Shown: positions 158 through 59,075, counted from the first letter of the stretch. The stretch is DNA of 64,000 nucleotides from an uncultured Poribacteria bacterium (GCA_958295855.1 OY282383.1:183178-247177), one strand, 5' to 3'. Notes: a model not told the origin generated them from the sequence alone. Numbers and translations are program-made.

Positions 158-1243
158 ATGACTATAGAAACCGATGCGCGCGACCTGCTGCATTTTCTGA
201 CTGTGTCGGTTGAACACTTCCCAGACAGGAGTGCGCGCAAGTTGCTAGAAAATAAGGAAAACGTGCGGGGGTTGCTACAAATCCTCGCCGGGGACCTCGC
301 CGGGCAGATAGATTTTAGCCGGCTTGTGTCCCTGAACCGGAGTTTTATCCCGGACATGCTGCGGGAACAGGAGTCGGATCTCGTTTTTCAGGTGCCGTTT
401 ACCAGTCGTGCAGGCACCGATGATGAAGTACTGATCTATATCCTGATTGAACACCAATCGACGGTAGACCCGCTGATGGATTTCCGTGTGTTGTTTTACA
501 TGGTGCTGATTTGGGATGCACAACGCAGAGAGTGGGATCGGGACGATGTGCCGCGCGGTAAGCGTAAGTTACGTCCGATTCTGCCGATAGTCTTTTACAC
601 CGGGGAGCGGCGTTGGGAGCTCCCGCTGTCTCTGGATACGATGATGGACATTCCGGAGGAGCTGTCGCGGTTTGTTCCCCGATTTGACACACTGTTTCTG
701 AACGTCAAGGGGACGGATGCATCGGTGCTCACCGAAAACGATCATCCGTTTGGGTGGTTGATGACGGTTCTTCAAAAGGAGGGTGCTTCGCCTGAGACGC
801 TCAAGCGCGCGTTAATAGAGGCGATGGTGCACTTAGATTCGCTGGATGCGGCGCAAGCAGGTCAAAGGCGCGAGGCCATCCTGTATCTGCTGTCGCTGAT
901 ATTGTATCGTCGTCCGACAGCCGAGCACCAAGAACTTGTGAGGGTTGTAGACCGGCATACGCCGGACATGGAGGTAGAAACTATGGCGCAGTCGATGGCA
1001 GAGGTGCTGATAGAGCGTGGCATGGCACGCGGCATTGCGCAAGGTAAAGCAGAAGGGGAGACAGCGGCCAAACAGATGGCCCTCCTCAAACTGCTGCGGT
1101 TCCGTTTTGATCCCATTCCGCAGGCACTGACCCACCAGATTCGTTCAATCCGAAGCCTCGCCTTGCTTGATGCGCTCTTTGAACAAGTACTCGCTGCACA
1201 GACGCTTGAGGACATTAACTGGCAAAATCACAACGAAGGGTAG
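158..1243 (+). CDS. Rpn-family recombination-promoting nuclease / putative transposase (Transposase_31, PDDEXK_7-like)
   Basis: ORF 101..1243. Start moved to the ATG at 158 (AAGGAG upstream) because the ORF start at 101 overlaps the promoter. The Rpn/YhgA-like assignment rests on overall similarity of the conserved N-terminal block (about the first 150 aa) as recalled from memory. Alternative start at ATG 119. Confidence 0.6.
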   Translation: MTIETDARDLLHFLTVSVEHFPDRSARKLLENKENVRGLLQILAGDLAGQIDFSRLVSLNRSFIPDMLREQESDLVFQVPFTSRAGTDDEVLIYILIEHQSTVDPLMDFRVLFYMVLIWDAQRREWDRDDVPRGKRKLRPILPIVFYTGERRWELPLSLDTMMDIPEELSRFVPRFDTLFLNVKGTDASVLTENDHPFGWLMTVLQKEGASPETLKRALIEAMVHLDSLDAAQAGQRREAILYLLSLILYRRPTAEHQELVRVVDRHTPDMEVETMAQSMAEVLIERGMARGIAQGKAEGETAAKQMALLKLLRFRFDPIPQALTHQIRSIRSLALLDALFEQVLAAQTLEDINWQNHNEG

Positions 1244-1671: not shown

Positions 1672-2463
1672 ATGCTCGAACTGACACGGAAAGATATGGA
1701 ATTTTTCAAAACCGAAGGCTACTTGGTGAAACGAAAAGTGCTGGATGCGGAACTGATGGAACGAGCCCGGGCAAGACTGTGGGACAGCGCACCAACAGGA
1801 AGGTGTCGCGAAAATCCCGACACATGGGTGGGGCCCTTCAGACCGGAAGAGGAGAACCATGAAAAGTCAAATCACCGACGAGGCTTTCGATGGAACTTCC
1901 GGGAGCCCGGCGGCGAAGAATGGATGATCCGACTTCTCGCCACCGATCCAAATGTGTGGCACATGGCAGAGCAGCTTTTAGGCACGGGAAATCTTGTGCA
2001 ACCCGACCGTGTGCGCGGCATCTATTGCACCCTACCATACGGGGATGTGCCCAAAAAATCTATCGGGTGCCACGTTGACGCACATCCGTTCCATCTGGGG
2101 GCTGTCGGTTATATCGATGATGTTCCACCGGAAGGAGGCGGCTTTACTGTGTGGCCGGGAAGCCACCAGACCTTCTATTATGACTACCGTTCGCAGTACA
2201 AGAATGAGCCGACACCACAATATGATGTCGACAGGGAACGCATCAGCAGAGGCCCGGGCATTGAATGCTACGGCAATGCAGGTGACGTTGTGTTCTGGCA
2301 TCATCGTATCGGGCACGCTGCCGGGCATAATCACTCATGGCAGATTCGGCAGGCGGTACTGTACGATTTCAGAAAAACGGAGTTGGTGAAAACACAGGAA
2401 GAACCGCCTAACGAAGATATGTGGCAAGATTGGCCGGGGATTAAGGCGTTGGATTACGAGTAA
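1672..2463 (+). CDS. Phytanoyl-CoA dioxygenase (PhyH) family Fe(II)/2-oxoglutarate oxygenase
   Basis: ORF 1627..2463. HxD...H iron-binding pattern (CHVDAHP ... WHHRIGHAAGHN). AAGGAGG precedes the ATG at 1672. Confidence 0.6.
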   Translation: MLELTRKDMEFFKTEGYLVKRKVLDAELMERARARLWDSAPTGRCRENPDTWVGPFRPEEENHEKSNHRRGFRWNFREPGGEEWMIRLLATDPNVWHMAEQLLGTGNLVQPDRVRGIYCTLPYGDVPKKSIGCHVDAHPFHLGAVGYIDDVPPEGGGFTVWPGSHQTFYYDYRSQYKNEPTPQYDVDRERISRGPGIECYGNAGDVVFWHHRIGHAAGHNHSWQIRQAVLYDFRKTELVKTQEEPPNEDMWQDWPGIKALDYE

Positions 2464-3388: not shown

Positions 3389-3563
3389 TGGGGGTGTCTC
3401 CTTTCATTGCGTTGCGTGGCTATAAACATTTCGCCCCTAACGGGGCTAAAGATGTGAACTTGCTAAACAAAGGCGTGCTTACAAGCAGAAGTCGGCGCGC
3501 TTGACTCAGCATAAATAATTGCTAAGGCTATCAGAACAGTTGCCAATGCCTAAGACGCTCTTC

Positions 3564-3604
3564 TCCGCGTAATCCGCGTAATCCGCGTAATCCGCGATTC
3601 AGAC
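3564..3604. repeat. CCGCGTAATCCGCG (x3) ATTCAGAC repeat, same family as the Rpn-flanking repeats
   Basis: Direct sequence match to positions 30-76 and 1396-1530. Confidence 0.8.
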
Positions 3605-3610
3605 AATAGA

Positions 3611-3642
3611 GGTCACGGCACACGGAGTGTGCCTACTACCTT
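3611..3642. repeat. Hairpin module (GGTCACGGCACACGGAGTGTGCCTACTAC) overlapping the 3' end of the RM gene
   Basis: Same family as 14592-14702 and 47276-47392. In the gene's frame it encodes VVGTLRVP plus the stop codon. Confidence 0.8.
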
Positions 3643-6600
3643 AGGTAACCCTTCAATAACCTTCACCGTCTCTAAACTGACTGTGATTACCTGGCCAAGC
3701 AAACGGAGGATATACTCCCCATCATCATCGCGATTTGGGTCGTTGAGGATGCCGCTCCGTTTGTCTATTTTGACGCGGTACCCATCCACTACCCACTCCA
3801 ACGCTGAGCGGTTTCCTAACCGATACGCAAACACCTCCGCAGGGATGCCCGCTAATGTGAGGAAGTCGTTGTATTTCAACTGCGTTTTGTCTTTGGAGAG
3901 TTTCATTCTCTCTACCCGCCAATCTACCTGCATACCCGGCGTTTCAATCGGCTCGAGTTTGTCATATTCGGGCTGTGTCTCATAGTTGACGTGCAAATCT
4001 GCGAGCTGCGCCCCTGCCACCGCAAACGCCCAGAAGTCTTCGGCGAAGGGGATATGCGGTAAATCGCGCTTGAGATTTTCCTGATACCGCTCGCGATAGT
4101 CAGGATGGTGCAGGAGTCCGTAAGTATAGTGGAAGATGTCCCACTTGCTGATAGTGTTGTCTTGGTAGTGCGTGCGGAACTGCGCCAATGCCCACTCGGT
4201 GATGTTTTCTTGTCGGTTTGTGCCATCCTCATTGTAGGTGTAGAAAGGGAAGCATTGAGCACCACAACCTGGGCCTACAACATGACTATCTGTTAATTGG
4301 TTGCTCATAAGAATCATGAAAGGTTTTTCAGATCCTTTATCCGTTAGACAAATCACTTGATTTTCCGTTTCTGTCTCAGGTGTAGGAAAGATGGAGGGAA
4401 ACACATATACGCATTCGTTCATCATTCTATGAAAGTATAGGTGCGATTTTGTAAACGGGCGATAGAGTGAAAATCGCACATTTTCAGTTGAGAATTTAGC
4501 CAGTTTGCCCTGTCTCAAGTTTGACTTCAGGCTTCGGGTCCACTTGAGCTTCGTATCATCAATTTCTATAAAATCATTGACGTTGATGTTTCTGTCACTT
4601 CGTCGCTCCCATTTAGACACTTGCCCATTGTAAGTTTCCATCATCGCTTGCATATTTTCGGTAAGCGCCTTGAAATTAAAATTGTAAGTCCACGTGTCGC
4701 GATTCGTTATCACACCGAGGCTATAGGTTTTAAAAAGCGTTCCCTCCACATCCCCTTTGCTCGCCTTCGCCGCTTTGCTTCCTATCGGGATAAAGGTGTC
4801 AAAGTCGGAGTGAAGCCCTTCGGTGAGCCACGTATACCTTTTATCGGGTATCAACTCTTGCCACGCTACATCGCCTAAGTGCTGCTTTTCTTCCAAAAAC
4901 GCAAACGTCCGTTCTTTACTCCACACCGTCGTTTCACCGTTATAGAGAATTCGCACAGGCTGCCCTCGGTGCGGGTTTGATTTGACGAGGAGATTGATGC
5001 TCACCCCAACCTGAATCCCAAACACGTTGGAGTCCCCAGGCTGCCCTTTGCGGATGTTCCCACCTAAATCCAGAATATAGAGCGTGTCAAACTCATCGGC
5101 GAGATGGCGCCGCATGCCATCAAACGATCTTCCATCAATAAAACTGTGATTAGTGATAAAAACGATAATCCCTTCCGCTCCTAACTTATCCGTTGCCCAG
5201 CGGATTGCCTTGACGTACGGGTCATAAAGCGAATTTTTCAGTTGCGCGCTGGATGCTGCAGCGTACGTCGCGCGGACCCGCGCATCAACCGCCTCGTGCT
5301 GCCGATTCTTGTTGTTATCGTTTTCGTTTTTCTGTCCAGCATTGTAGGGCGGATTGCCAATGATAACAGTCATCGGTGTCGCTTTCTGCTCCTCAACCCG
5401 CTGTGTGTTTTCGGGCGTGAAATAGGCAAACTCCCCGGTTTCGTGCGGTGCATCCATCAGACCGAAGGTATCAAAAGTATCCACGAAGCAGATATGCGGG
5501 AACGGCTCGTAGGTGCCGGTTCTCTCAAAATAGGCGTGTTCAATGTTGAGACTGGCGATGTAGTAAGGGAGCAGCATCACTTCATTGCAGTGCAGTTCCT
5601 CGCGATATTTCTGCGGCAACCTTCTGCCCTGAATGTCTTGCATCAGGCGCACGATGAAGTTGCCAGTGCCGACGAACGGATCGATGATGTGCACACCCGT
5701 ATCTGATAGCGAACGCCCGAATTCTGTTTTGAGGAGATGCTCAACACTGTTCACCATGAAGTCCACAATCGGTTGTGGCGTATAGACGATGCCGTGTGTA
5801 TCTGCAACATCAGCGGAAAATCCCTGAAAGAACTGCTCGTAGACGGTGTTAAGGAAATGCTGTTTCTGTGAGTAGTCAGTGAGGGTCGCGGCGGTTTTCT
5901 CAATCGCAACGTAGAACGGATTCAAGGGACGGAGGAACTCGGAACGACTCAGGGAGCGGTGCGTGAGGATACGGATAACCTTCTCAATTTCAACGGCGAT
6001 GATGTTCCTGTTCGTAAAATCGGGATTGTCAAAGATGGTGCGAAAAATCCGCTCGGTGAGTAGGTGTTGGATGAGCATCTCCTCTACCTCTGCCGCAGTG
6101 AGGTTTGGGTTAATGGCCGCTTGGCACTGCCGATGGAAATTCGCAAACGCCTCCCGAAACGGGGGGTTATCTCGCCGCTCGCTTTGGATGCGCTTCGCGA
6201 CACCACGCCCAAGCACCGGCACTTTTTCTTTAAATTCTTCCACCGCTGCGTACCAATCGGCGATGTTTTCTTCCTGATACCCAAAGAAGGTGTCCAGCAG
6301 ATGGATAAGATTTTCCGGTTCGCTCACGTCTACATCAAGGCGGAGGGTGCCGTTTTGATAGAGGAGGGCATGGGTGGGCGATTGAATGATGATATTTTTG
6401 AACGGGTACCCGGCTTCCGATTTCTTCTGTGCTTCGGTGGGGAGAGCGTCTTGTGTATCTTTCGCTTCCCAATGTCCGTGTGGCAAGCCGAACGCATCGA
6501 CGACTTCGCCATCTAACCGGATGCGTCTGTTCTGTTTTGTGTGGCGTGTCTTTTCGCACACGAGAATGAGGTCTACCTGTCTGCAATAGTGTTGGAGGAG

Positions 6601-6720
6601 GTTTTGGAATGCGGTTCGGACAGCGCCTTCATGTTCTGCCCCGATTTTTGTGTATGCATCGAGTTCTGCGTAGTAGTTTTTGATTGGCTTGTGTGTCGGT
6701 TTGATGTTGAGTGCTGGCAT
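3613..6720 (-). CDS. Single-polypeptide Type IIL/IIG restriction-modification enzyme (MmeI-like): N-terminal PD-(D/E)xK nuclease plus gamma-class N6-adenine DNA methyltransferase
   Basis: 1035-aa ORF. D...EAK motif near the N-terminus, FxGxG motif I (DPFVGTGNF) preceding NPPY (GNPPYN), long C-terminal region consistent with a target-recognition domain. Confidence 0.6.
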   Translation of the reverse strand: MPALNIKPTHKPIKNYYAELDAYTKIGAEHEGAVRTAFQNLLQHYCRQVDLILVCEKTRHTKQNRRIRLDGEVVDAFGLPHGHWEAKDTQDALPTEAQKKSEAGYPFKNIIIQSPTHALLYQNGTLRLDVDVSEPENLIHLLDTFFGYQEENIADWYAAVEEFKEKVPVLGRGVAKRIQSERRDNPPFREAFANFHRQCQAAINPNLTAAEVEEMLIQHLLTERIFRTIFDNPDFTNRNIIAVEIEKVIRILTHRSLSRSEFLRPLNPFYVAIEKTAATLTDYSQKQHFLNTVYEQFFQGFSADVADTHGIVYTPQPIVDFMVNSVEHLLKTEFGRSLSDTGVHIIDPFVGTGNFIVRLMQDIQGRRLPQKYREELHCNEVMLLPYYIASLNIEHAYFERTGTYEPFPHICFVDTFDTFGLMDAPHETGEFAYFTPENTQRVEEQKATPMTVIIGNPPYNAGQKNENDNNKNRQHEAVDARVRATYAAASSAQLKNSLYDPYVKAIRWATDKLGAEGIIVFITNHSFIDGRSFDGMRRHLADEFDTLYILDLGGNIRKGQPGDSNVFGIQVGVSINLLVKSNPHRGQPVRILYNGETTVWSKERTFAFLEEKQHLGDVAWQELIPDKRYTWLTEGLHSDFDTFIPIGSKAAKASKGDVEGTLFKTYSLGVITNRDTWTYNFNFKALTENMQAMMETYNGQVSKWERRSDRNINVNDFIEIDDTKLKWTRSLKSNLRQGKLAKFSTENVRFSLYRPFTKSHLYFHRMMNECVYVFPSIFPTPETETENQVICLTDKGSEKPFMILMSNQLTDSHVVGPGCGAQCFPFYTYNEDGTNRQENITEWALAQFRTHYQDNTISKWDIFHYTYGLLHHPDYRERYQENLKRDLPHIPFAEDFWAFAVAGAQLADLHVNYETQPEYDKLEPIETPGMQVDWRVERMKLSKDKTQLKYNDFLTLAGIPAEVFAYRLGNRSALEWVVDGYRVKIDKRSGILNDPNRDDDGEYILRLLGQVITVSLETVKVIEGLPKVVGTLRVP

Positions 6721-6923
6721 AGTGTTTTCTCCGTGTGTTGTCGGTGATTGAATTTAGATAACGCGAATTATACACGGATTAGGGAAGAATTGCAAGGGAA
6801 AAATTCGTAGTTGCAAACTAAATATTTCTGTGGATTTTAGATAGAAATTATGTTATAATTTTTACTGAGGTCAACCGATTACCGAAAATTAAACACCCGT
6901 ATACACGAGAGGGAACCATTTGA

Positions 6924-14363: not shown

Positions 14364-14591
14364 TGCATGGGCGGGCATCCGTTCCTTGGGGGCATTTAGG
14401 GGGCGTTCCGGCCCTGCTGCGGGAAATCGTAGCGGGAGGTCGCCGTGCGTCGCCAGCGGATGTGGGCGGACATGAGGGCGCGCCGTTAGAATGCACGTCG
14501 CATTTGGGCGAATTACGCCGCAAAACCGCGTCTACAAGAAGAGATAAAGGCAGAAAAAAGAGAGGCTGGTGCGGTAAGGCACCAGCCCTTT

Positions 14592-14702
14592 CTCTGTCTG
14601 CTAACGGCACGCGGAGCGTGCCTGCTACTTTGTCTGCTAACGGCACGGCGGAGCGTGCCTGCTACTTTGTCTGCTAACGGCACGGCGGAGCGTGCCTGCT
14701 AC
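14592..14702. repeat. Three tandem copies of the hairpin module TGTCTGCTAACGGCACG(G)CGGAGCGTGCCTGCTACTT
   Basis: Stem GGCACGC/GCGTGCC with loop GGA. Lies between convergent genes and is terminator-like. Confidence 0.8.
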
Positions 14703-14722
14703 TTTGTCCGCCCCGAAGCCGA

Positions 14723-15175
14723 TTAAGCGTTGACGCGGATCGGAATTTCCGTAGGCTTGGCTTCTTCCGCTTTCGGAATGTCAAGCGTCAGAACACCATC
14801 TTTGAACTCGGCTTTGATATCATCCGCCTTGACTGTCGGCGGGAGCGTAAATGCCCGTTGGAACCTTCCATAGGGGCGTTCGACTCGGCGGTAGTTTTTG
14901 CTGTCGTCCACCTGTTCCTGACGCTTTTCGCCTTTGAGCGTCAAGCGGTTCTCTTTTACGGAGACCTGGATATCGTCCTGAGTGACACCCGGGAGTTCGG
15001 CGCGAACTTCAAAACTATCGTCCGTTTCAGCAATATCAACGGAGGGGGACCAGTTGTGTTCGCCTGCTACGGTTCGCATGCCCTGATAGACAAATGGGTG
15101 CTGGAAAATTCGCCAGGGTCTGTTGTGAAGTTTGAACAGATTTGCTGCCGGTCGACGTAAGGTTACATAAGTCAT
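14723..15175 (-). CDS. Hsp20/alpha-crystallin family small heat-shock protein
   Basis: 150 aa with an alpha-crystallin domain (SVDIAETDDSFEVRAELPGV...). Confidence 0.85.
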   Translation of the reverse strand: MTYVTLRRPAANLFKLHNRPWRIFQHPFVYQGMRTVAGEHNWSPSVDIAETDDSFEVRAELPGVTQDDIQVSVKENRLTLKGEKRQEQVDDSKNYRRVERPYGRFQRAFTLPPTVKADDIKAEFKDGVLTLDIPKAEEAKPTEIPIRVNA

Positions 15176-15336: not shown

Positions 15337-15789
15337 TTAAGATTTCACCGTAATCGGGATGTGCGTCTGTTTTGCCTCTTCTGCTTTGGGAATTGTCACC
15401 CTTAAGACACCATCGCCGAATTTTGCTGTGATAGCCGTGGATTCAACGTTCCGTGGCAAGGTGAATGTCCTTTGGAAGCTACCATACCGCCGTTCGACGC
15501 GGTGGTAGTTTTTGTCCTCAGTTTCTGCTTCCTGTCTTTTTTCGCCCTTGATTGTCAGCACGTTGTCGATTACTGAAACATGGACATCGCTTTCCGTAAC
15601 ACCGGGGAGTTCTGCGCGAACTTCAAAACTATTGTCCGTTTCAGAAATATCAACGGAAGGCCTCCAAGGGGTGTCACCGGCATCAGTTCTGCCTTCTCGA
15701 GACTCAAACAGGTCTTCAAAAGTACGTCCCATTTCGGAGTGAAGGTTGAACAGGTTACCGATGGGGCTGCGTGTGGTTAAGAATGCCAT
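15337..15789 (-). CDS. Hsp20/alpha-crystallin family small heat-shock protein (tandem paralog)
   Basis: 150 aa, highly similar to the adjacent gene at 14723..15175. Confidence 0.85.
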   Translation of the reverse strand: MAFLTTRSPIGNLFNLHSEMGRTFEDLFESREGRTDAGDTPWRPSVDISETDNSFEVRAELPGVTESDVHVSVIDNVLTIKGEKRQEAETEDKNYHRVERRYGSFQRTFTLPRNVESTAITAKFGDGVLRVTIPKAEEAKQTHIPITVKS

Positions 15790-27176: not shown

Positions 27177-27790
27177 GATAGCAAGCTTTTCGTCATTCCT
27201 TGCGGAGTAATCAGGTTGCAAGACGCATCGCGCAATGCACTGTAGATCTCGTCGGAGGTTTCTGATGCCTTAATTGTTTGTAGGGGCAGTGCCTTGTGCC
27301 TGCCCTTCCCCTCCGAATCGCAACACTTTTACAAAAAAGTTGAATATTCCGCTGACATGTGGTAAAATTCGTATTTTCGTCATTCCTTGCGGAGAATTCA
27401 GGTCGCAAGACGCATCTGGCAATGCACTGTAGATCTCGTCGGAGGTTTCTGATGCCTTAATTGTTTGTAGGGGCAGTGCCTTGTGCCTGCCCTTCCCCTC
27501 CGAATCGCAACACTCTTACAAAAAAGTCGAATATTCCGCTGACATGTGGTAAAATTCGCCTTTTCGTCATTCCTTGCGGAGTAATCAGGTTGCAAGACGC
27601 ATCTGGCGCTGCACTGTAGCTCTCGTCGGAGGTTTCTGATGCCTTAATTGTTTGTAGGGGCAGTGCCTTGTGCCTGCCCTTCCCCTCCGAATCGCAACAC
27701 TTTTACAAAAAAGTTGAATATTCCGCTGACATGTGGTAAAATTTGCGGCGTAATGGCATTAACCCCCTGCAAAGCAGGGGCAAATACCCT
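27177..27790 (+). repeat. Three tandem copies of a composite unit of about 184 bp, then a palindromic element
   Basis: Tandem periodicity starting at about 27177, 27361 and 27545. Module order: TTTTCGTCATTCCTTGCGGAGTAATCAG; CTGTAGATCTCGTCGGAGGTTTC; GGGCAGTGCCTTGTGCCTGCCC; promoter-like TTGAATATTCCGCTGACATGTGGTAAAAT. Confidence 0.9.
27714..27742 (+). promoter_or_regulatory. Promoter-like element TTGAAT, 17-bp spacer, TGgTAAAAT (extended -10); promoter-proximal copy of three
   Basis: Identical elements at about 27346-27374 and 27530-27558. Oriented toward fumC. Confidence 0.5.
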
Positions 27791-27831: not shown

Positions 27832-29217
27832 ATGCGAACTGAAACAGATAGCATGGGCAGCCTCCAGGTCCCAGCCGACCGGTACTGGGGCGCACAGACA
27901 CAACGCGCCCTCCAAAATTTTAGAATCGGCGATGAACGTCTGCCACGCGCGGCGATATGGGCACTCGGCACTGTGAAACAGGCAGTCGCGCACGTGAATG
28001 CGGACCTCGGTTTGCTTGAACCTCGGCTTGCGGATGCAATCAGCACTGCAGCACAGGAGGTTATTGATGGCACATTGGATGACCATTTTCCGCTCCGAAT
28101 TTGGCAGACAGGCAGCGGAACACAGACAAATATGAACGTGAATGAAGTCATTGCAAATCGGGCAATTGAGCAACTGGGTGGCGAAATGGGCAGCAAGCAT
28201 CCCATCCACCCCAACGACCACGTCAATAAGTCTCAATCAACAAACGACGTTTTTCCGACAGCTATCCATTTGGCGCTCTTAAAGCAGATTCGGGAGTTTA
28301 TGTTGCCGCGCCTTAGCGCACTACGAGATGCGTTTGCAGAGAAGGCATCCGCCTTCGAGGAAATTGTTAAGATCGGGCGAACGCATCTGATGGATGCAAC
28401 ACCGCTCACGCTTGGACAGGAGTTCAGCGCCTATACACAACAACTTACTCATGCAGAGACGCGCATAACCGATTCCCTCCCACACCTCTCTGAGCTTCCA
28501 ATTGGCGGCACGGCTGTCGGGACAGGATTAAATACGCATCCAGACTATACGGCGCGCGTGGTGGCGAGGCTGGCGGAGATGACCGGATATCCACTCCAGC
28601 GTGCCTCAAACGCGTTTGAAGCACTTGCATGCAGGGATGCCGTGGTGAGTGCGAGTGGCGCGTTGAAGACGCTGGCGGTTGGCCTGTTTAAGATAGCAAA
28701 CGACATCCGGTGGCTCGCCTCGGGGCCGCGGTGTGGACTGGGTGAGTTGCAGTTGCCTGAGATGGAACCAGGAAGCTCAATTATGCCGGGGAAGGTGAAT
28801 CCAACACAGTGTGAGGCTGTGACAATGGTGTGTGCACAGGTGCTCGGGAACGACACGACGCTGACGTTTGCAGGTGCCAACGGGGCGTTGCAACTGAATG
28901 TGTTTATGCCTGTGATTGCGTATAACGCTTTGCAATCCATACAACTTCTCGGTGACGCGTGCGAATCATTCCGCAAAAACTGTGTGGAAGGCATCGTGCC
29001 GAACAAGGAAGCGATTGGGCAGCACCTCTCGGAATCGCTGATGCTCGTTACGGCGTTAACACCGCATATTGGCTACGATAGGGCAGCAAAGGTAGCACAA
29101 TACGCGCATGAGCAGGGCTGCACGCTCCGCGAAGCTGCTATTGCCCTGGAGGTATTAACGGCAGAGGCGTTTGATGAATTTGTCGTGCCGGGGGACATGA
29201 CGAAGCCGAATCTATAA
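27832..29217 (+). CDS. fumC: Class II fumarate hydratase
   Basis: ORF 27808..29217. Start set at [27 protein letters not shown] by alignment to the canonical FumC N-terminus. [16 protein letters not shown] signature. Confidence 0.9.
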
Positions 29218-29396
29218 TTGGTTGCAGGCTGTCGACATACTGCCCATCAGCCCCCCGCACCCCGACACAGGCAACAATGAAAAATTTTTTGTCGTGCCGG
29301 GGGACATGACGAAGCCGAATCTATAATTGGTTGCAGGCTGTCGACATACTGCCCATCAGCCCCCCGCACCCCGACACAGGCAACAATGAAAAATTT
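29181..29396 (+). repeat. Tandem duplication of about 108 bp spanning the fumC stop codon
   Basis: The segment 29181-29289 is repeated almost exactly at 29290-29396. The first copy includes the last 12 codons of fumC. Confidence 0.85.
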
Positions 29397-36058: not shown

Positions 36059-36462
36059 ATTTTCGCTATTCCTTGCGGTGTAATCAGGTTGTAAGGTTCA
36101 TCGAGGGTTACACTGTAGATCTCGCTGGAGGTTTTCGCTATTCCTTGCGGAGTAATCAGGTTTTCGCTATTCCTTGCGGTGTAATCAGGTTGTAAGGTTC
36201 ATCGAGGGTTACACTGTAGATCTCGCTGGAGGTTTTCGCTAAAAGGGTTCGAAGGTGCCAAGAATTTTGACACCTTGTTCCTGTCTGTAATTTGCGGAGA
36301 ATTCAGCATGGGCAGGCACAAGGCACTGCCCCTACAGATACAAGCCTTGCATCAAAAACCTCCGACGAGATCTCTAATGCGATGACAACTACATAATGCC
36401 AATGGTATTTGCCCCTGCTTTGCAGGGGTTTTATACCAATTCGAGTTCTCCGCAAGGAATGA
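36059..36462. repeat. rpoB-rpoC intergenic mosaic: two copies of TTTTCGCTATTCCTTGCGGTGTAATCAGGTTGTAAGGTTCATCGAGGGTTACACTGTAGATCTCGCTGGAGG, plus GGGCAGGCACAAGGCACTGCCCCTACAG and a palindromic element
   Basis: Direct reading of the sequence. Provides the rpoC SD and the rpoB stop codon. Confidence 0.85.
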
Positions 36463-41013: not shown

Positions 41014-41039
41014 TTGATGCGGTCTCCTTTTGGTACCGG

Positions 41040-41739
41040 ACTCTGGTGGTGGGCAGGCACAAGGCACTGCCCGTACGGCGCAATGAAATCCCGAGAATAA
41101 AAAAGTTGTTTGCTTTTCGCGCACAACTTGGCTTGCAAGCTTCGCCAAAAAGTGGTGGGCAGGCACAAGGCACTGCCCCTACGGACGCGCCGCCTTTTAA
41201 CCTATTGGCAATAGCATAACAGAATATTATACACTATAATTAGGGGAAAGTCAAGAAAAAATGCATTTTTGTTATTCCTTGCGGAGTAATCAGCATAAGT
41301 AAGAAATAAAAAAGTTGTTCATAAAAATTCACAACTTGGTATGAAACCCCTGCAAAGCAGGGGCAAATACCATTGGCAAGACACATCCAGCAATGCACTG
41401 TAGCTCTCGTTGGAGGTTTCTTATGCAACCTTTCGGGCCAATGGCTGCCCGCCCACCCGTTTCCGTATTGTGGCTAAAAAAGGGGGTGCTTGTTTTTGAC
41501 GTTAATCAAGCTAGGGCATTTAGTTTTCAGTAGTTTTGAGTAAGGGGCGTGGTTGGGTGAGGATTAAGAATTTTCGTCTATGCCTAGTATTTTGATTGGA
41601 TTATGTGGTGTTAATGGCATTGGAGCTCTCGTCGGAGGTTTTGGTCTATGTCTAGTATAATGTGGTATAAAGGTTGACACACCACGTTAACTTGGTATAC
41701 TGTATTAAGGTACGGAAACCCCGTGCTACGGGAGACAAA
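41040..41739. repeat. Repeat-dense intergenic region (GGGCAGGCACAAGGCACTGCCC x2, palindromic element, CCCGCCCACCCGTTTCCG, GGGCATTTAGTTTTCAG, and others)
   Basis: Module families shared with other intergenic regions. Confidence 0.8.
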
Positions 41740-42270: not shown

Positions 42271-43574
42271 ACAGATATTATGAGAGAAACCTCACCGCTA
42301 GTCCCAGTGACTCGGCTGGAAGACAAGAAGGGTGGAAGAAGGGAAAAAACACCGCCCCCCAACCTTACTGTCTTCCATACTGTCTGCCATTTTTCCAATC
42401 TTCAAAAATACTAGTCTGTTGCATCATTTGTGCTTTTTGGTTAGTGGTATTTACCCCTGCTTTGCAGGGGCAGATACCCGGTCAAGGTTTTGCCGGGGCG
42501 CAATCGACTGAGTCACCCCGAGCGCGGGCGCGCGAGCTCGGCATCTATATCGGGAGCCTTCCTACCGGTGAGTACAACGCAATCACCGACGTGCCCGGGG
42601 TCAAAGTAGGACACGTCACCCTGAAGCAGGGGGAGTCAATTCGCACTGGTGTCACCGCTATCCTTCCGCGCGATGATATTTGGGAAGCGCGTCTGTTTGG
42701 CGCAGCACATACCATTCATGGCAACGGTGAAGCCACCGGCATCGCCCGAATTAATCAAGCCGGGTGGATTGAGTCCCCGATTTTGTTGACAAATACCCTG
42801 AGTGTCGGGGCTGTTCACGATGGTGTTGTCCGGTACATTGTCAAGCGGTATCCGGACAATAACATTGTGCTGCCGATTGTGGCAGAGTGTTACGATGGCG
42901 GCTTGAACGACATCAGCGGGCTCCATGTAACTGCACAGCATGCCATTGAATCCATTGAGAACGCCACCTCCGGTAAGGTAGCAGAGGGCAGTGTAGGCGG
43001 CGGTACAGGTATGCGATGCTACGGGTTCAAAGCCGGTATCGGTACTGCCTCGCGGGTACTCCCACCAAACAGGGGCGGATGGAAAGTCGGGGTACTCGTC
43101 AACGCAAACGGCGGACGACGACATCAGTTACGCATTGATGGCGTGCCGGTGGGTAAGGTACTTGATGATGCCCAGCAGAACCCAGGCAGGGACGGCTCGT
43201 TTATCATCGTTATCGCGACGAACGCGCCGTTAACGCATCGGCAGTTGAAACAGCTGGCGATGCGTGCAACGCACGGCCTCGCCCGCACAGGCACACCAAG
43301 CACAGATGGCAGTGGTGAGTTCGTTATCGCGTTTTCTACCGCCAATATTTTTCCACGCGGCACAGAAACAGGTACCTTTCACATCCAGATGGTAGTCAAC
43401 TCACGCTTGAATTCTCTCTTTCAAGCTGTCATTGAGGCAACAGAGGAGGCTATTGTGAATTCAATGACGATGGCAACCACAACCACTGGCCGCAACGGCA
43501 GAACAATGCACGCGATTCCATTGGATGGGTTGCAACAGGTGATGCAGCAGTTTTCGTCATTCCTTGCGGAGTAA
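42267..43574 (+). CDS. Peptidase family S58 / P1 (DmpA-like L-aminopeptidase / D-Ala esterase-amidase family)
   Basis: 435 aa with a DmpA/ArgJ-like fold signature. A palindromic element sits inside the N-terminal hydrophobic region. The C-terminal FSSFLAE* is encoded by a repeat module. Confidence 0.55.
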   Translation: MNRYYERNLTASPSDSAGRQEGWKKGKNTAPQPYCLPYCLPFFQSSKILVCCIICAFWLVVFTPALQGQIPGQGFAGAQSTESPRARARELGIYIGSLPTGEYNAITDVPGVKVGHVTLKQGESIRTGVTAILPRDDIWEARLFGAAHTIHGNGEATGIARINQAGWIESPILLTNTLSVGAVHDGVVRYIVKRYPDNNIVLPIVAECYDGGLNDISGLHVTAQHAIESIENATSGKVAEGSVGGGTGMRCYGFKAGIGTASRVLPPNRGGWKVGVLVNANGGRRHQLRIDGVPVGKVLDDAQQNPGRDGSFIIVIATNAPLTHRQLKQLAMRATHGLARTGTPSTDGSGEFVIAFSTANIFPRGTETGTFHIQMVVNSRLNSLFQAVIEATEEAIVNSMTMATTTTGRNGRTMHAIPLDGLQQVMQQFSSFLAE

Positions 43575-43826
43575 TCAGCATGGGTATGAAACCCCTGCTT
43601 TGCAGGGGCAAATACCATTGGCAGGATAGTTCTGACGGGCAGGCACAAGGCACTGCCCCTACAGTAGATCTCGTCGGAGGTTTCTGATGCAAGTTTTTTA
43701 ATGCTTAATTAGCAGGGAACACACTACAACTCATGTCGGAGGTTTCTGACGCAATGTTCGTAGGGGTGGTGCCTTGTGCCTACCCACATACTGGAGTATA
43801 TCGCGATTCGGACATCGCTCCTACGT
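43555..43826. repeat. Intergenic mosaic (TTTTCGTCATTCCTTGCGGAGTAATCAG, palindromic element, GGGCAGGCACAAGGCACTGCCCCTACAG x2, GATTCGGACATCGCTCCTACG)
   Basis: Module families shared across the window. Confidence 0.85.
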
Positions 43827-47102: not shown

Positions 47103-47275
47103 TCTTCGGACTGGCGACTCCTGCCTTTAGGTAGAAGAGGAAAGTCCGCCTCCTGTTAAATTCCCTTTTCAGCATGTGGTATTTAACTCTGCAAAGCAGG
47201 AGCAGATACCCTGTGCCGTTTTTGGGGAGTATACTACAAAAACAACTATCCTTCAAGCCCTAAATTGTACAAACG

Positions 47276-47392
47276 GGTCACGGCACGCGGAGGGCTCCTA
47301 CGACTTTGGTCACGGCACGCGGAGCGTGCCTACTACTTTGTGCCTACTACTTTTGGTCACGGCACGCGGAGCGTGCCTACTACTGTTTCCAT
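47276..47392. repeat. Tandem hairpin modules (GGTCACGGCACGCGGAGCGTGCCTACTACT x3, one degenerate) overlapping the 3' end of the DUF1156 gene
   Basis: Same family as 3611-3642 and 14592-14702. Encodes VVGTLRVP plus the stop codon. Confidence 0.85.
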
Positions 47393-50164
47393 CTGCTGTG
47401 GGGCACCCATCGCGGCAGAGATATACGGCCACTCTGTCACGAGGTTGTTGTACGCCGCAGCACTCGACGCATCGCCACGCACCTCATAGTACGCATACAA
47501 GACGCGCGCCAAACGTTTCGCAGACTCCGAATCGCGCATCGCACGCGCAACACCAGCACAGCCCAAAATACCACCGCTGTGCTCTACGCCCGATAAATGC
47601 CACATCATCCGCAGACACCCCTCCCACGCTGTCATCTCTTTTCGATTTTCACGCTCAGCGTATTCTTCCGCTCGCAACAGCCGAACCTTGCCGCGTGACG
47701 CGATGAGCACTCTGTCGTGCAGCGCGGCGATGTCTACATCCTTCGCTTTTGAAAGCCCCTCTGCATCCCCGAAGTTGCCCGCCATGTAGCCGTGCTGCTG
47801 CAACCACGTCAAACAGAACTGACTCTCCGCATCCAGTTCGCCTGTCTCTTTTTCATGATAGGCGGTGATTTCGTTGTTGATGTGCATGAGTGCCTCGCGG
47901 ATTGGCACAATCTCACCGCTGATTCGCATCACTTTGCTATAGCGGGAGTAGACCTCCATGCCGGGGCCGATGGCGGCTTGTGCTAAATCGACCGGCCTGA
48001 TGTTTGTGATGCGGGTGAGTCTGTCAAGTGCGGGTGGCATCTCTTTTTTCAGTGCTTGTAGAAATTCGTTGCGGGTTATGGTGGGGGCATCCTCAGGGCG
48101 CGGCCGACACACTAACACAACAGAGGATGCCAGCGCGTTTTTAGTCGCCTTAAGAGCTGTTGGCCGCTCTGTCCGCATTGGCCAGGTGCCGGTTACCTGA
48201 AAACCAGCGTTGACGATTGCCGTGAGCATCGTCTCCCAGCCGGTGGAGGTTTTTCCATCCTGTTCCTCTTCCTGCTGTTTGTAGGCGTAGAAAATGGATG
48301 TGGGAAATACATCTGTGCAGTGTTGTCGCATTTGCAGCAATGCCTTGCCGAGCAATTCCTCAAAGTGTTGTGTAGGATCTTTAAATCGAGGACTCGCGGT
48401 TATCTCCTCATCCTTTGGAGTCATCATGCCGGCAAACAGTTCGGTATAGGTATCGCGCAGAAGGGGTCTCAGCCAGACATAGAAGAACTCGGACAAATCT
48501 GCATAGCCGATATTATCGTAGTAGGGCGGATCTGTAATAAAAACAGGCATATCCTGAGCATGCGGCGTAGTACATACATCCGCCTGATACGCTTCACCAG
48601 TGTTCGCTGAGGTAGGGAACCTCTCAACAACCCTTGCAATCCATGCTATCTGCGCCAGCCAGTTTTGCGTTGAAGTTGAGAACGGATTTGCTTCAGCAAA
48701 ATCCCACATCATTGAGATTTTTTGCATGCCGAAAACTGGCATAATACTATTCCCCCCGGTGTCCCATATAGCGAAACTGGAACCACTCTCAGCGGTCCGG
48801 TCAATGGCAAAGGCAAGGTAAGTACAAACAGTTGAGGCGTATTCGGATTCTCCTCCATCTTGCAGGATAAGATTACGGACTTCTCCCAGAAGGTCTTTGA
48901 AAGTAGTGAGAGCCGTTAACTGACGTTCTGTGAAAAGTTGATGCCACTCTGTAAACCCATAATTCTGTATAGCAAAACCTAACGCTCGATGCGGCAGTTT
49001 ACCCCTAGGTTTCCACGTAGGTTGAACAGACTGGGCAGTGTGGATATGCGTATTCGCGGGAGGCACGAATATTTTGGGTTTACCGTCTGCGACTATCGCT
49101 GTCATTACCGCTCCCATCTTTCCTGCTTTCGCTTGTTCTCGGACATAAGGCAACTTGACAGCACTCCCGCACGCAAAGCAGTAGGCACCTGTTCGGCTGA
49201 CTGTAGGCTTCGGCACGCCTTCATTATCGGTTTGCACGACCCATGAAATCGTGTTGGATTCCCGGTCAACAACCGGCTTTGTCCAATGCTCATTACCTTT
49301 CTTTCTTGAGAGTTGGAAGGTTTTCATCAGCGGCATCTGGAGTCCACACGCAGGATTGATACACGGCACTGTGCGCGCCCAGATCCATGCCACAACCGTG
49401 GCAGTTTGCCCTGTGGGCAATTCCACGGGTGGATAGAGATGTCCGATGCGTTTGTGTGCTGCCGCGCGCATCCACGCCCCGTAGTAACGGATGTCGGATG
49501 CCAAGCCTGCGGTGCCTTTCCATGGCACACGCGTTTTCCTTTTACCTGTGCCGGTGAACATTCCCATCGGATCGGCATCAGGATGGACCGGTTTCTGGTT
49601 GTGAAACGTCGGGGGTAATTCAATCATCGCCTTGTTGAGCAGGACAGGCAGCGGATTTAGATCGGAGGCGCGGGCACGTAATCCCAGGCGTTGTGCCTCA
49701 AGCGGGATGGAGCCGCCCCCACAAAACGGATCATAGATTGCGGGGCAGTGGTCGCGGAGGTATTGTAGCACTGCATCGGGATTGTTTTCAAACCGCTGGC
49801 GACAATCCGTTAGGTCTTCGGCGTTGTTGCGTGCGACAGAGATGGCGATTTCACGGCGTGCCTCTGCCAAGAGGTTTTCATCGGTGCTATTTTTCCAGAG
49901 CACGAGTCTCCGGAGGAGGTGATGGAGTCGGTTTCGTTCTGCGTTCTGCTCGGGTTCGGTTGGGAATTCGTCTATGCATTCGGAGGGGTCGTCCACCATG
50001 CTGGCGAAGATAACGGCGCGGCATGCAGCGAGGGGACGACGCGCCCACCACTTGTGCAGTGTTGAGGGGTGTCCATGCGTCAGCGAAGCGTCTTTTGCAG
50101 ACTCTTGGTTGATATCTTGGAGGGGTATATTGACCTCAATGAGTTTTTTGCGGTAAGTCGTCAT
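47357..50164 (-). CDS. DUF1156-domain DNA methyltransferase (putative N6-adenine / N4-cytosine, DPPY motif); orphan, with no DUF499/DUF3780 partners nearby
   Basis: 935 aa. N-terminal HKWWARRPLAA motif typical of DUF1156. FITDPPYYDNIGYADLSEFF catalytic motif. Confidence 0.6.
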   Translation of the reverse strand: MTTYRKKLIEVNIPLQDINQESAKDASLTHGHPSTLHKWWARRPLAACRAVIFASMVDDPSECIDEFPTEPEQNAERNRLHHLLRRLVLWKNSTDENLLAEARREIAISVARNNAEDLTDCRQRFENNPDAVLQYLRDHCPAIYDPFCGGGSIPLEAQRLGLRARASDLNPLPVLLNKAMIELPPTFHNQKPVHPDADPMGMFTGTGKRKTRVPWKGTAGLASDIRYYGAWMRAAAHKRIGHLYPPVELPTGQTATVVAWIWARTVPCINPACGLQMPLMKTFQLSRKKGNEHWTKPVVDRESNTISWVVQTDNEGVPKPTVSRTGAYCFACGSAVKLPYVREQAKAGKMGAVMTAIVADGKPKIFVPPANTHIHTAQSVQPTWKPRGKLPHRALGFAIQNYGFTEWHQLFTERQLTALTTFKDLLGEVRNLILQDGGESEYASTVCTYLAFAIDRTAESGSSFAIWDTGGNSIMPVFGMQKISMMWDFAEANPFSTSTQNWLAQIAWIARVVERFPTSANTGEAYQADVCTTPHAQDMPVFITDPPYYDNIGYADLSEFFYVWLRPLLRDTYTELFAGMMTPKDEEITASPRFKDPTQHFEELLGKALLQMRQHCTDVFPTSIFYAYKQQEEEQDGKTSTGWETMLTAIVNAGFQVTGTWPMRTERPTALKATKNALASSVVLVCRPRPEDAPTITRNEFLQALKKEMPPALDRLTRITNIRPVDLAQAAIGPGMEVYSRYSKVMRISGEIVPIREALMHINNEITAYHEKETGELDAESQFCLTWLQQHGYMAGNFGDAEGLSKAKDVDIAALHDRVLIASRGKVRLLRAEEYAERENRKEMTAWEGCLRMMWHLSGVEHSGGILGCAGVARAMRDSESAKRLARVLYAYYEVRGDASSAAAYNNLVTEWPYISAAMGAPQQMETVVGTLRVP

Positions 50165-53826: not shown

Positions 53827-53900
53827 CGGGGCGTGGCGCAGCCCGGAAGCGCGCTTGAATGGGGTTCAAGAGGTCGCTGGTTCGAATCCAGTCGCCCCGA
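53827..53900 (+). tRNA. tRNA-Pro (anticodon GGG)
   Basis: 74-nt cloverleaf. Acceptor stem CGGGGCG/CGCCCCG with C1:G72 (typical of tRNA-Pro). D-stem GCGC/GCGC. Anticodon stem CTTGA/TCAAG with loop ATGGGGT. T-arm GCTGG-TTCGAAT-CCAGT. Discriminator A. Confidence 0.85.
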
Positions 53901-57359: not shown

Positions 57360-57775
57360 CAATTCGGTTTCCGCTCCGATTTTTCCGCATGAGGTATTAA
57401 CCCCTGCAAAGCAGGGGCGGATACCCGGTTCAAAATCGGGTTTCCGGCAAGTTTGTAGCGTGTTCCCTGCTAATTAAGGTTGCATAAGAAACCTCGGACG
57501 AGAGCTACTGTAGCGGCAGTGCCTTGTGCCTGCCCATCTACATCGTCAGAACACTCCTGCAACCTGATTACTCCGCAAGGAATAACAAAAAGACGAGATC
57601 TGCCACAACGTCACAACAACGAATAATTAAGCGTTAAAATACTTGCATAAGAAACCTCCGACGAGAGCTACTGTAGCGGCAGTGCCTTGTGCCTGCCCAT
57701 CTACATCGTCAGAACACTCCTGCAACCTGATTACTCTGCAAGGAATGACAAAAAACTCTGCAAGGAATGACAAAA
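57360..57775. repeat. Intergenic mosaic between fabH and fabD, including two copies of GAAACCTC(C/G)GACGAGAGCTACTGTAGCGGCAGTGCCTTGTGCCTGCCCATCTACATCGTCAGAACACTCCTGCAACCTGATTACTC(C/T)GCAAGGAAT(A/G)ACAAAAA
   Basis: Duplicate unit of about 110 bp at 57478-57590 and 57645-57758. The last copy supplies the fabD SD (AAGGAATGACAAAAATG). Confidence 0.85.
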
Positions 57776-58756
57776 ATGCAACACGCCTTTATTTTTCCAG
57801 GACAAGGTTCGCAAAAAGTTGGCATGGGCGCTGAATTGGCACGAACCTATCCAATTGCCGAGGACGTTTTTGATGAGGCAGAGACAGTTTTAGGCAGACC
57901 ACTACGGCAGCTCTGTTTCCACGGCCCTGAGGCAGAACTAAAGCGGACAGAAAACACGCAACTTGCCATTTTGGCCTGTAGTGTTGCAACGTTGCGGGTG
58001 TTAGCACAATTAGGGGTTGTGCCGAAAGTAGTTGCAGGGCACAGTTTGGGAGAGTACTCCGCGCTCGTGGCGGCCGGTGTCCTTGAATTTGCCGATGCAT
58101 TGCAGTTAGTGTGCGCACGCGCACACTTCATGGCAGAAGCCGGTGCCAATGGTATAAACCCCTGTTTACAGGGGCAAATACCACCGCAGAACGGCACCAT
58201 GGCAGCAATCCTCGGCATGGAAACGGAACAACTCCAAAATCTTTGTGAGAAAGCTAATGGTGTTGTTAACATCGCCAATTACAACTGCCCCGGGCAATTG
58301 GTAATTTCCGGAGAAGTTGATGCTGTCAACCATGTTATTGCGCTCGCCAAGGGTGAAATCGGCGCAAGACGCTGTCGCACTTTGCCCGTAAGTGGCGCGT
58401 TTCACTCACCGTTGATGGCACCTGCACAACAAAAGTTCGGCGAGGCACTGAATGCAGTGACGTTGCATCCGCCTCAAGTCGCTATCGCGATGAACGTAAC
58501 AGGCGAGTTTGCCACAGATGCAGATAATATCCGAAGCCTCTTGTTTCAACAGATAACGCAACCCGTTCAGTGGGAGAAATCTCTGCACACTATGGCGAAG
58601 GCCGGCATCTCACATTTTGTGGAGGTTGGCCCGGGGAAAGTCTTGTGTGGCTTAGTGAACCGGACGCTCCGTGGCAGCAGTACCGCACATATTGAAGATA
58701 TCGACAGTCTTGAGGTTTTTCGTCATTCCTTGCGGAGTAATCAGGACGCAAGATAG
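57776..58756 (+). CDS. fabD: Malonyl-CoA:ACP transacylase
   Basis: ORF 57767..58756. Start set at MQHAFIFPGQGSQ. GHSLGEYSA active site. In-frame palindromic element at 58151-58182. The last 12 codons come from a repeat module. Confidence 0.9.
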   Translation: MQHAFIFPGQGSQKVGMGAELARTYPIAEDVFDEAETVLGRPLRQLCFHGPEAELKRTENTQLAILACSVATLRVLAQLGVVPKVVAGHSLGEYSALVAAGVLEFADALQLVCARAHFMAEAGANGINPCLQGQIPPQNGTMAAILGMETEQLQNLCEKANGVVNIANYNCPGQLVISGEVDAVNHVIALAKGEIGARRCRTLPVSGAFHSPLMAPAQQKFGEALNAVTLHPPQVAIAMNVTGEFATDADNIRSLLFQQITQPVQWEKSLHTMAKAGISHFVEVGPGKVLCGLVNRTLRGSSTAHIEDIDSLEVFRHSLRSNQDAR

Positions 58757-59075
58757 CTCCCACAATACACTGTAGATCTCGTCGGAGGTTTTCGTCATTC
58801 CTTGCGGAGTAATCAGCATGGGTATGAAACCCCTGCTTTGCAGGGGCAAATACCATTGGCAAGATAGTTCTCACAATACACTGTAGATCTCGTCGGAGGT
58901 TTTCGTCATTCCTTGCGGAGTAATCAGCATGGGTATGAAACCCCTGCTTTGCAGGGGCAAATACCATTGGCAAGATAGTTCTCACAATACACGGTAAATC
59001 TCGTCGGAGGTTTTCGTCATTCCTTGCATGAGAAATCTCCGACGAGATCTGCCACAACGTCACAACTACAACCTT
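58717..59075. repeat. Tandem composite repeats of about 113 bp (TTTTCGTCATTCCTTGCGGAGTAATCAGCATGGGTATGAAACCCCTGCTTTGCAGGGGCAAATACCATTGGCAAGATAGTTCTCACAATACACTGTAGATCTCGTCGGAGG), two full copies plus partials
   Basis: Unit starts at 58717, 58789, 58902 and 59015. Confidence 0.9.

Follow-up and report, generated by a model that had tools for sequence, protein, structure and literature searches.

The stretch of DNA analysed here, referred to as the window, comprises 64,000 nucleotides of an uncultured Poribacteria bacterium and stems from the long-read metagenome assembly ENA ERZ19489113. It represents ordinary chromosome, as it encodes domains of RNA polymerase subunits, a translation GTPase and the Lon protease among others, and its GC content is about 0.50-0.52. 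The sole Rfam match within the window is a tRNA gene (53827-53900, plus strand, 58.8 bits). The two genes that are central to this study both encode DNA-modification enzymes:

3613-6720, minus strand: gene A, a single-chain restriction-modification enzyme (Type IIL/IIG) of 1035 aa, TGA stop
47357-50164, minus strand: gene B, a DUF1156/HmaB-type DNA adenine methylase of 935 aa, TGA stop

A sequence-only reading had noticed that both genes end in codons for VVGTLRVP followed by TGA, and translation of the two open reading frames confirmed it. Protein A ends in ...KVVGTLRVP* (...EGLPKVVGTLRVP, the asterisk denoting the stop) and protein B in ...ETVVGTLRVP (...QQMETVVGTLRVP*). The accompanying claim, that the codons of the tail are read from a hairpin module, also held: the 25-nt core of the module is found at 3615-3639 and at 47359-47383, and at both genes its last base is the T of the TGA. 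More specifically, residues 1027-1035 of protein A (KVVGTLRVP) are encoded by the module together with the gene-module junction, with the codons for VVGTLRVP at 3616-3639 and the TGA at 3613-3615. In gene B the final eight residues, VVGTLRVP, are module-encoded (47360-47383, with the TGA at 47357-47359). The reading frame in question, frame a of the module, is open for 1038 codons upstream at gene A and for 943 at gene B. On the gene strand the module reads GTAGTAGGCAC(A/G)CTCCG(T/C)GTGCCGT at both genes and is followed by GACC. Just two positions distinguish the copies from each other (ACA/ACG and CGT/CGC), and both differences are synonymous as well as mutually compensating within the stem of the hairpin.

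The shared tail is neither a coincidence nor a sign of protein homology: copies of one repeated module encode it. Coincidence is ruled out by the frequency of the module pattern in the window, which lies far above expectation, with eight matches to the 17-nt stem-loop pattern where 0.19 are expected and four matches to a 23-nt pattern where 0.01 are expected. Moreover, identical gene ends were recovered on independent contigs of the same metagenome, six for gene A and one for gene B, and the arrangement is therefore no assembly artefact.

The module copies in the window, and the features that adjoin them, are the following:

3615-3639, minus strand: copy at gene A, sense GTAGTAGGCACACTCCGTGTGCCGT, stem GGCACAC/GTGTGCC with loop TCC, nhmmer E = 2.3e-10
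3555-3600, plus strand: a different repeat directly after the gene A copy, a block of 9-mers (TCCGCGTAA)n and then TCCGCGATTCAGA, families D13 and D20
14595-14708, minus strand: tandem array of three units with period 37, GTAGCAGG variant
14723-15175, minus strand: HSP20 gene preceding the array (PF00011, E = 3.2e-26), stop at 14723-14725
47359-47383, minus strand: copy at gene B, sense GTAGTAGGCACGCTCCGCGTGCCGT
47340-47353, minus strand: 14-nt fragment repeating the head and left arm of the module, plus strand GTGCCTACTACTTT, period 14, 2 copies
47312-47336, minus strand: second full copy after gene B, non-coding, from pattern and profile search
47280-47304, minus strand: chimeric copy, sense GTCGTAGGAGCCCTCCGCGTGCCGT, repeat family D14, 79%

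A profile search of the window returned copies only at gene A, at gene B and at 14595-14708, all on the minus strand, and six full copies are present in the 64 kb. Two of the three clusters are thus on the methylase genes, for which the naive chance is about 0.003. Further copies had been announced behind gene B, and indeed one full, one partial and one chimeric copy were found there. In the chimera the left arm comes from a second variant (GTAGGAGCCC..GGGTTCTCC) and the right arm from the main one, and the hairpin cannot form.

The array at 14595-14708 had been described as standing after an aquaporin gene. The tandem array itself is present, with cores at 14604-14628, 14640-14665 and 14677-14702 of the variant GTAGCAGGCACGCTCCGC(C)GTGCCGT, followed by TAGC and without TGA. 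The tie to the aquaporin gene had to be abandoned: that gene is on the plus strand and ends at 14363, about 232 nt off, and the array is sense-oriented to the HSP20 gene, starting 18-20 nt after its stop. This HSP20 gene is the downstream one of two in tandem (14723-15175 and 15337-15789, minus strand), which are about 74% identical over 161 nt. A separate hairpin, flanked by A and T runs, is found at 14566-14590 between the array and the aquaporin gene. The array is not a CRISPR array, its gaps being 7-22 nt long and identical from unit to unit, and no cas genes were seen among the first 25 of the 96 Pfam families listed for the window.

Together with the repeat at 3555-3600, the copy at gene A gives that gene end a mosaic, BIME-like composition. 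At the end of gene B, too, other repeat families are interspersed with the module. Blocks of (TCCGCGTAA)n plus TCCGCGATTCAGA also occur at 22-76 and 1393-1498, where they flank a Transposase_31 gene on both sides in the same orientation as at 3555-3600; the (TCCGCGTAA)n block may represent an end sequence or a satellite of Transposase_31. Other hairpin mosaics are found between genes at 27187-27743, 29179-29396, 36060-36277, 41036-41650, 43510-43790, 57480-57776 and 58748-59027. The mosaics of the window contain at least two further GTAG-headed modules, GTAGGGGCAGTGCCTTGTGCCTGCCC (11 copies) and CTGTAGATCTCGTCGGAGGTTT (15 copies), as well as a 33-nt palindrome, GGTATTTGCCCCTGCTTTGCAGGGGCAAATACC, and the hairpin modules combine into tandem composite units of 187, 111, 109 and 101 nt.

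Judged by its sequence, the module can be classified as a GTAG-type REP (repetitive extragenic palindrome) of the form GTAG-YA-GGCACRC-TCC-GYGTGCC-GT. It consists of an unpaired GTAG head followed by a 7-bp stem with a 3-nt loop, and a GTAG head with a short stem-loop is the defining architecture of the GTAG-type REPs (PMC3733652, PMC2817692). The hairpin folds on either strand. Among 29 distinct variants the stem is paired in 95.6% of the cells and both sides change in five of the seven pairs. Eight fully compensated stem types were counted. The covariation score of the stem is 0.302 versus 0.142 for shuffled alignments, none of 500 shuffles reaching the observed value, and it collapses when the register is slid. 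The module is a short palindromic unit with compensatory stem changes, and it forms inverted dimers and BIME-like clusters. GTAG stands at the start of all window copies and of all 45 Poribacteria profile matches, an invariance that is not independent evidence and is partly there by construction, GTAG having been demanded or favoured by both the search patterns and the profile. No Rfam family matches the module, neither at gathering thresholds over the whole window nor at E values up to 10 in the region 47150-47450.

The distribution of the module is wide. Taking one genome per species, exact copies of GTAGYAGGCACRCTCCGYGTGCCGT were found in at least 119 stretches, with at least 167 copies. 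Among the listed stretches are 19 Poribacteria loci, many orders of the Planctomycetota, two loci of one Verrucomicrobiales MAG and one 'Alcaligenaceae' MAG; the locus with the last label (L059) may be a mis-binned contig. No long ORF runs into 110 of the 167 listed exact copies, most of the 29 clusters analysed in Poribacteria sit between ORFs, and beyond the approximately 27 nt of the module the sequence is not conserved between loci. In the Planctomycetota, inverted pairs at distances of 7-60 nt are frequent. The Poribacteria copies are mainly single or in direct tandem, commonly with TTAAAA or TTAATA just before them. With respect to the neighbouring genes, a co-oriented ORF precedes 17 of the 29 clusters in Poribacteria, and in 7 of these 17 the module overlaps the ORF end or is at most 15 nt away, while 8 of the 29 are antisense at a 3' end. 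The co-orientation is therefore a tendency and not a rule, and we rejected a strict sense orientation to the upstream gene.

REPs are associated with RAYTs, the REP-associated tyrosine (HUH/Y1) transposases, and a RAYT together with its REPs is called a REPtron (PMC3733652). A RAYT HMM was derived from Additional file 5 of PMC3733652, which contains RAYT and TIRYT sequences, and was used to search the six-frame ORFs of the window and of the loci collected for comparison (995 kb). The ORFs of the 64-kb window yielded no RAYT. The Transposase_31 gene at 101-1243 (PF04754, YhgA-like) belongs to a different family. The single RAYT-like match in the 995 kb was L102:1053-1703(-) (E = 1e-17), on the Poribacteria chromosome OZ244950.1. 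Its product has the HUH motif (VIMPNHVHLLV) and the WQ..F.DH..R box. It scores 21 bits against Pfam Y1_Tnp, for which the cut-off is 23, and in NCBIfam it matches NF047646 alone (REP-associated tyrosine transposase; E = 3e-14, 53 bits versus an equivalog cut-off of 80). Module copies in opposite orientations surround the gene: one side has them at 979(+) and 1026-1051(-), the other side at 1690(+) and 1776-1800(-). A RAYT flanked by its repeats, i.e. the REPtron arrangement, is thus found on the chromosome of a relative. The stop of this RAYT gene reads TAA AGTAGTAGG. The next gene, encoding a RecD2-type helicase of 728 aa, stops at the TAG of a module copy and does not have the VVGTLRVP tail. 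A special link of the module to defence genes, which had been proposed on the basis of genes A and B, is not borne out in view of this helicase stop and of the array behind the HSP20 gene. At the same locus, four tandem 121-nt units with one REP each (L102:540-1010) adjoin the RAYT gene, and the start region of the latter overlaps an opposite-strand REP.

The RAYT at L102 has 1790 homologs in all, some of which are called RayT by JGI. For the best 120 of these 1790 the identity is 72-95% among the closest (the one with a name is from Poribacteria) and about 60% to those of Planctomycetota. None of the best 120 is encoded on the contigs of 5,501,248 or 5,509,395 bases. The cross-phylum likeness of the RAYT parallels the cross-phylum identity of the repeat, and a 25-nt core and a RAYT that are common to both phyla point to either an old shared REP/RAYT system or horizontal transfer.

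The state of the two enzymes could be established by comparison with solved and profiled relatives. Protein A contains the Pfam domains ISP_coupler, N6_Mtase, Eco57I and Type_ISP_C, the last of which is complete (residues 662-1006, profile positions 2-341 of 342). Chain 7lo5_A, a solved homolog of 1029 aa, pairs through its residues 18-1025 with residues 24-1026 of protein A (E = 1.7e-210), and the PADLOC profile REase_MTase_IIG covers residues 13-1028. At the C-terminus, essentially the nine module-encoded residues alone are outside these alignments. The enzyme has the nuclease region, the gamma-class N6-adenine methylase and a full-length C-terminal target-recognition domain of a Type IIL/IIG enzyme, and it matches the Type IIL enzymes of the MmeI/DrdV type (7lo5) end to end. 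Likewise, protein B, in which Pfam recognizes the DUF1156 domain, matches PADLOC HmaB end to end (residues 5-924, profile positions 7-964 of 973, E = 1e-275). Gene B is not part of an Hma defence system, as the helicase/ATPase partner genes are not alongside. Its neighbours encode a trypsin/PDZ protease and a zinc-type dehydrogenase, and it is therefore considered an orphan methylase gene.

The possibility that the two genes had been truncated, as the sequence-only reading had put forward, could be checked against 240 homologs, and no C-terminal domain is missing. In both families the tail replaces only the final 2-5 residues, which are naturally variable. Members of family A usually end in ...SLETVxIVxxLPAL* or ...LPALKS*, and the window protein in ...EGLP plus KVVGTLRVP*; a paralog with the same downstream gene context as gene A of the window (P0004) ends in KVVGDLRMP*. 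Members of family B have a variable tail of 5-9 residues after ...SPEQ, for instance MEMETAL* or ITADI*. The near relatives of protein B form two groups, one ending in ...HQMRLK* (P0123, P0127, P0128 and P0129) and the other in ...QQ(ME)TVVGTLR(V/L)P* (P0121, P0122, P0124, P0125, P0126 and P0131). On the evidence of these alignments, both enzymes should be treated as intact.

How a repeat can contribute such a tail becomes apparent from its reading frames. In gene sense, frame b meets an immediate stop at the TAG(TAG) of the head. Frame a runs as VVGTLRVP through the hairpin to a TGA, TAA or TAG stop that begins at the last core base, the TGA being the form in this lineage. Frame c is open (SRHAPRAVT). 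We considered whether the stop directly after the core in frame a is a designed feature and make no such claim: such a stop is present in 58 of 201 copies (TAA 33, TAG 25) versus a naive 19%, an enrichment that is weak and confounded by descent.

The nearest tail-less homologs of both families have the module at the equivalent place, and their stop is the TAG derived from GTAG (...RLK* and ...ALKS*). In family B, L011 (P0123) ends in CAC CAG ATG AGA CTA AAG TAG, and this stop coincides with the first of the TAG triplets in its copy of the module (AAAGTAGTAGGCACGCTCCGCGTGCCGTGACC). In family A, L008 (P0002) ends in CCT GCG TTA AAG TCG TAG, with the TAG inside a second variant, AAAGTCGTAGGAGCTCTCCGTGGGTTCTCCGTGCCC, that also has a GTAG head and a hairpin. 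Relative to L008, gene A of the window and L012 are without 5 nt (TGCGT) directly upstream of the module. From the ATG to GTAGTAGG there are 6 nt in gene B of the window versus 8 in L011, a difference of 2 nt. An insertion of the module into the 3' ends of genes A and B, which had been suggested from the shared tail, is not borne out by these paralogs, since those without the tail already have the module there in another frame. Comparison of the junctions indicates that the shared tail most likely arises from length differences of 5 nt (A) and 2 nt (B) that shift the frame, rather than from a truncating insertion. Both states of the tail probably coexist in the genome of the window itself, with P0006 (...LPALKS*) and P0127 (...HQMRLK*) as its tail-less members.

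The REP of gene A and that of L012 have themselves diverged. At 3611-3642 of the window and L012:5575-5606, near-identical flanks enclose REPs that are unlike at 7 of 32 positions. The L012 REP joins the left arm of variant 2 to the right arm of variant 1 and cannot fold; the hairpin at gene A of the window is intact. The same type of chimera stands after gene B (47280-47304). The differences between L012 and the window suggest turnover of the REP or gene conversion in place.

Taken together, we consider it very probable that a GTAG-type REP, spread by a RAYT, was acquired at the ends of methylase genes and that frame-shifted junctions yield the shared tail as a by-product. A RAYT would spread and maintain the module. 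An ancestral copy in each methylase family would have gained a REP abutting its stop codon, and the REP would have travelled along as the methylase genes multiplied in the genome. Changes in the length of the junction (5 nt in A and 2 nt in B) would then have moved some copies from frame b to frame a, the frame-b copies ending in ...ALKS* and ...RLK* and the frame-a copies in ...KVVGTLRVP* and ...ETVVGTLRVP*. The tail would thus be a by-product of the junction frame that takes the place of 2-5 variable residues. That the junctions changed in this direction is read from the majority state of the homologs and is to be taken as probable. A single ancestral acquisition per family, followed by toggling of the frame at the junction, is suggested by the homologs, most of which stop before the hairpin is reached, by the order of variant 1 and then variant 2 that L011 has in common with the window, and, in family A, by three paralogs in which the module occupies the same codon position. 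Separate insertions of REPs at slightly shifted sites may have occurred, especially in family B.

The main alternative is the one of the original suggestion, in which the module, as a mobile element, entered the 3' coding end of each gene in a separate insertion and truncated it, so that the tail would mark damaged or shortened enzymes. REPs are thought to be mobile, gene B of the window exceeds its paralog L011 by one module copy, and its QQMET resembles the ...EQMEMETAL* of distant relatives, such that the module could have landed right after MET. Nevertheless, we regard this explanation as unlikely. [quoted passage not shown] In addition, the 240 homologs revealed neither a longer, uninterrupted C-terminal domain nor an empty site with a target duplication.

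It is considerably less likely that the module is an intrinsic transcription terminator that overlaps the stop codons by chance. A GC-rich hairpin at the 3' ends of genes, in the window mostly co-oriented with them, would fit such a role, but the module is not followed by a T-tract on either strand, the hairpin being succeeded by GTGACCAAAAG or GTGACCTCTAT. A terminator would also not be expected to occur in tandem arrays and inverted pairs, antisense at the ends of other genes (8 of 29 clusters) and around a RAYT gene. A scan returned no terminator-like sites at the ends of genes A and B, and the proposal that the two genes share a terminator is not borne out as far as a canonical intrinsic terminator is meant.

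Hardly credible is the reading under which both methyltransferases convergently recruited the tail as a peptide under selection, for example as a tag for localisation, degradation or interaction. In its favour, both genes encode DNA-modification enzymes that hold two of the three window clusters, and neither nucleotide difference between the copies alters an amino acid. The same differences are, however, compensatory in the stem, and across phyla the identical sequence abounds in non-coding DNA and in other frames. With the decay of the hairpin the peptide has drifted as well (KVVGDLRMP in L012, ..TLRLP in P0126), the RecD2 and HSP20 genes use or adjoin the module without the tail, and no credible further VVGTLRVP* proteins were found in 33 metagenome loci. 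The long ORFs that run into the module in these 33 high-GC loci, which a scan for the TGACC variant gave, are rich in Arg and Pro, look spurious and were not counted.

The presence of the module at both methylase genes relates to the way in which these genes are organized. Both families are multi-copy and scattered in Poribacteria genomes. For instance, one contig of 5,509,395 bases holds P0003, P0004 and P0005 of family A as well as P0124, P0125, P0129 and P0131 of family B. In family A the homology between paralogs extends from about 85 nt upstream of the ATG (near 6804) to the exact end of the module, and the flanking genes differ. The other boundary of the unit is the following:

6767-6804, minus strand: 5' edge of the gene A cassette, where the window aligns with L012 and L008; further upstream the sequences are unrelated

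Within this edge is a promoter-like sequence, TTGCAA (6790-6795), a 17-nt spacer and TATAAT (6767-6772), after which comes the ribosome-binding site GGAGAAAACACTATG. The cassette spans 3613-6804 (-) in the window, L012:2416-5650 and L008:2416-5600. Paralogs of family B resemble each other from about codon 5 up to the point where the module cluster ends (47357-50164 of the window versus L011:2501-5368). Because the homology between paralogs ends with the module, the module is part of the duplicated unit, and this explains, only in part, why two of the three window clusters are on methylase genes.

These boundaries allow a more far-reaching scenario, in which REP-tipped cassettes (promoter, methylase ORF and REP) are the units that multiply and relocate via the RAYT or via REP-REP recombination, the hairpin that overlaps the stop tunes the expression of potentially toxic enzymes, and junction indels switch between a TAG before and a TGA behind the hairpin. 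We mention it as a speculation of low probability. By analogy with REPs of E. coli near stop codons, the hairpin may have an effect on mRNA stability or translation termination, and protection of the 3' end of the RNA or slowed termination are possible forms of it. For enzymes A and B the biological consequence is probably small.

In practical terms, the finding clears up what appeared to be a protein motif shared by two enzymes or a pair of damaged defence genes: the identical tails are a by-product of a REP at the level of annotation, and genes A and B are merely its hosts. A REP/RAYT family with an identical 25-nt core in Poribacteria and many Planctomycetota should help the annotation of repeat-rich genomes, in which spurious ORFs and odd C-termini are likely. 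Moreover, a family that crosses phyla bears on the age and the mobility of REP systems.

The closest known systems are the GTAG REPs and REPtrons (Nunvar et al. 2010, PMC2817692; Di Nocera et al. 2013, PMC3733652), which have been reported in Proteobacteria, Cyanobacteria, Chloroflexi and the PVC superphylum, with several REP families per genome that are located mainly downstream of coding regions (PMC3733652). The module described here shares with them the unpaired GTAG head and a stem-loop of 6-9 bp, the coexistence of families, the inverted dimers, the REP-flanked RAYT and, probably, a high copy number with positions mostly behind genes, also with regard to the Planctomycetes and Verrucomicrobia covered there. 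It has been noted in the same study that the GTAG termini provide flanking ORFs with TAG stops and that some REPs are read as C-terminal residues (PMC3733652); the phenomenon at genes A and B is therefore known in kind. Differences exist as well. Poribacteria are not covered in PMC3733652, and in this phylum direct tandem and single copies outnumber inverted doublets. The exact 25-mer of the present module is common to several phyla, while many other REP families do not extend beyond one species or genus. We found no description of the module sequence in the searched literature. The module could nevertheless be one of the families GTAG-1 to GTAG-24 of Di Nocera et al., in whose supplements there is no GTLRVP peptide and the one 'GTRS' match is an unrelated peptide of P. 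entomophila. This REP family, its occurrence in Poribacteria and the cross-phylum identity of its 25-mer may be new.

Two further systems resemble specific aspects of genes A and B. According to Liang, Rudd and Deutscher (2015), as cited in PMC12306157, REPs of E. coli that are at most 15 nt from a stop codon stall ribosomes and lower translation. The likeness, as far as that citation describes it, is the stable hairpin at or next to the stop codon; at genes A and B, however, the hairpin is part of the ORF, a single base separates its stem from the stop codon, and stalling or down-regulation could here be expected only by analogy. The palindromic elements of Rickettsia (RPE), in the account cited by PMC3733652, are similar in being selfish palindromes that are translated within proteins that are probably still functional. 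Unlike the 25-nt GTAG REP, which here replaces the extreme C-terminus only, they are longer, belong to a CGTC-tagged or another class and usually lie within the protein.
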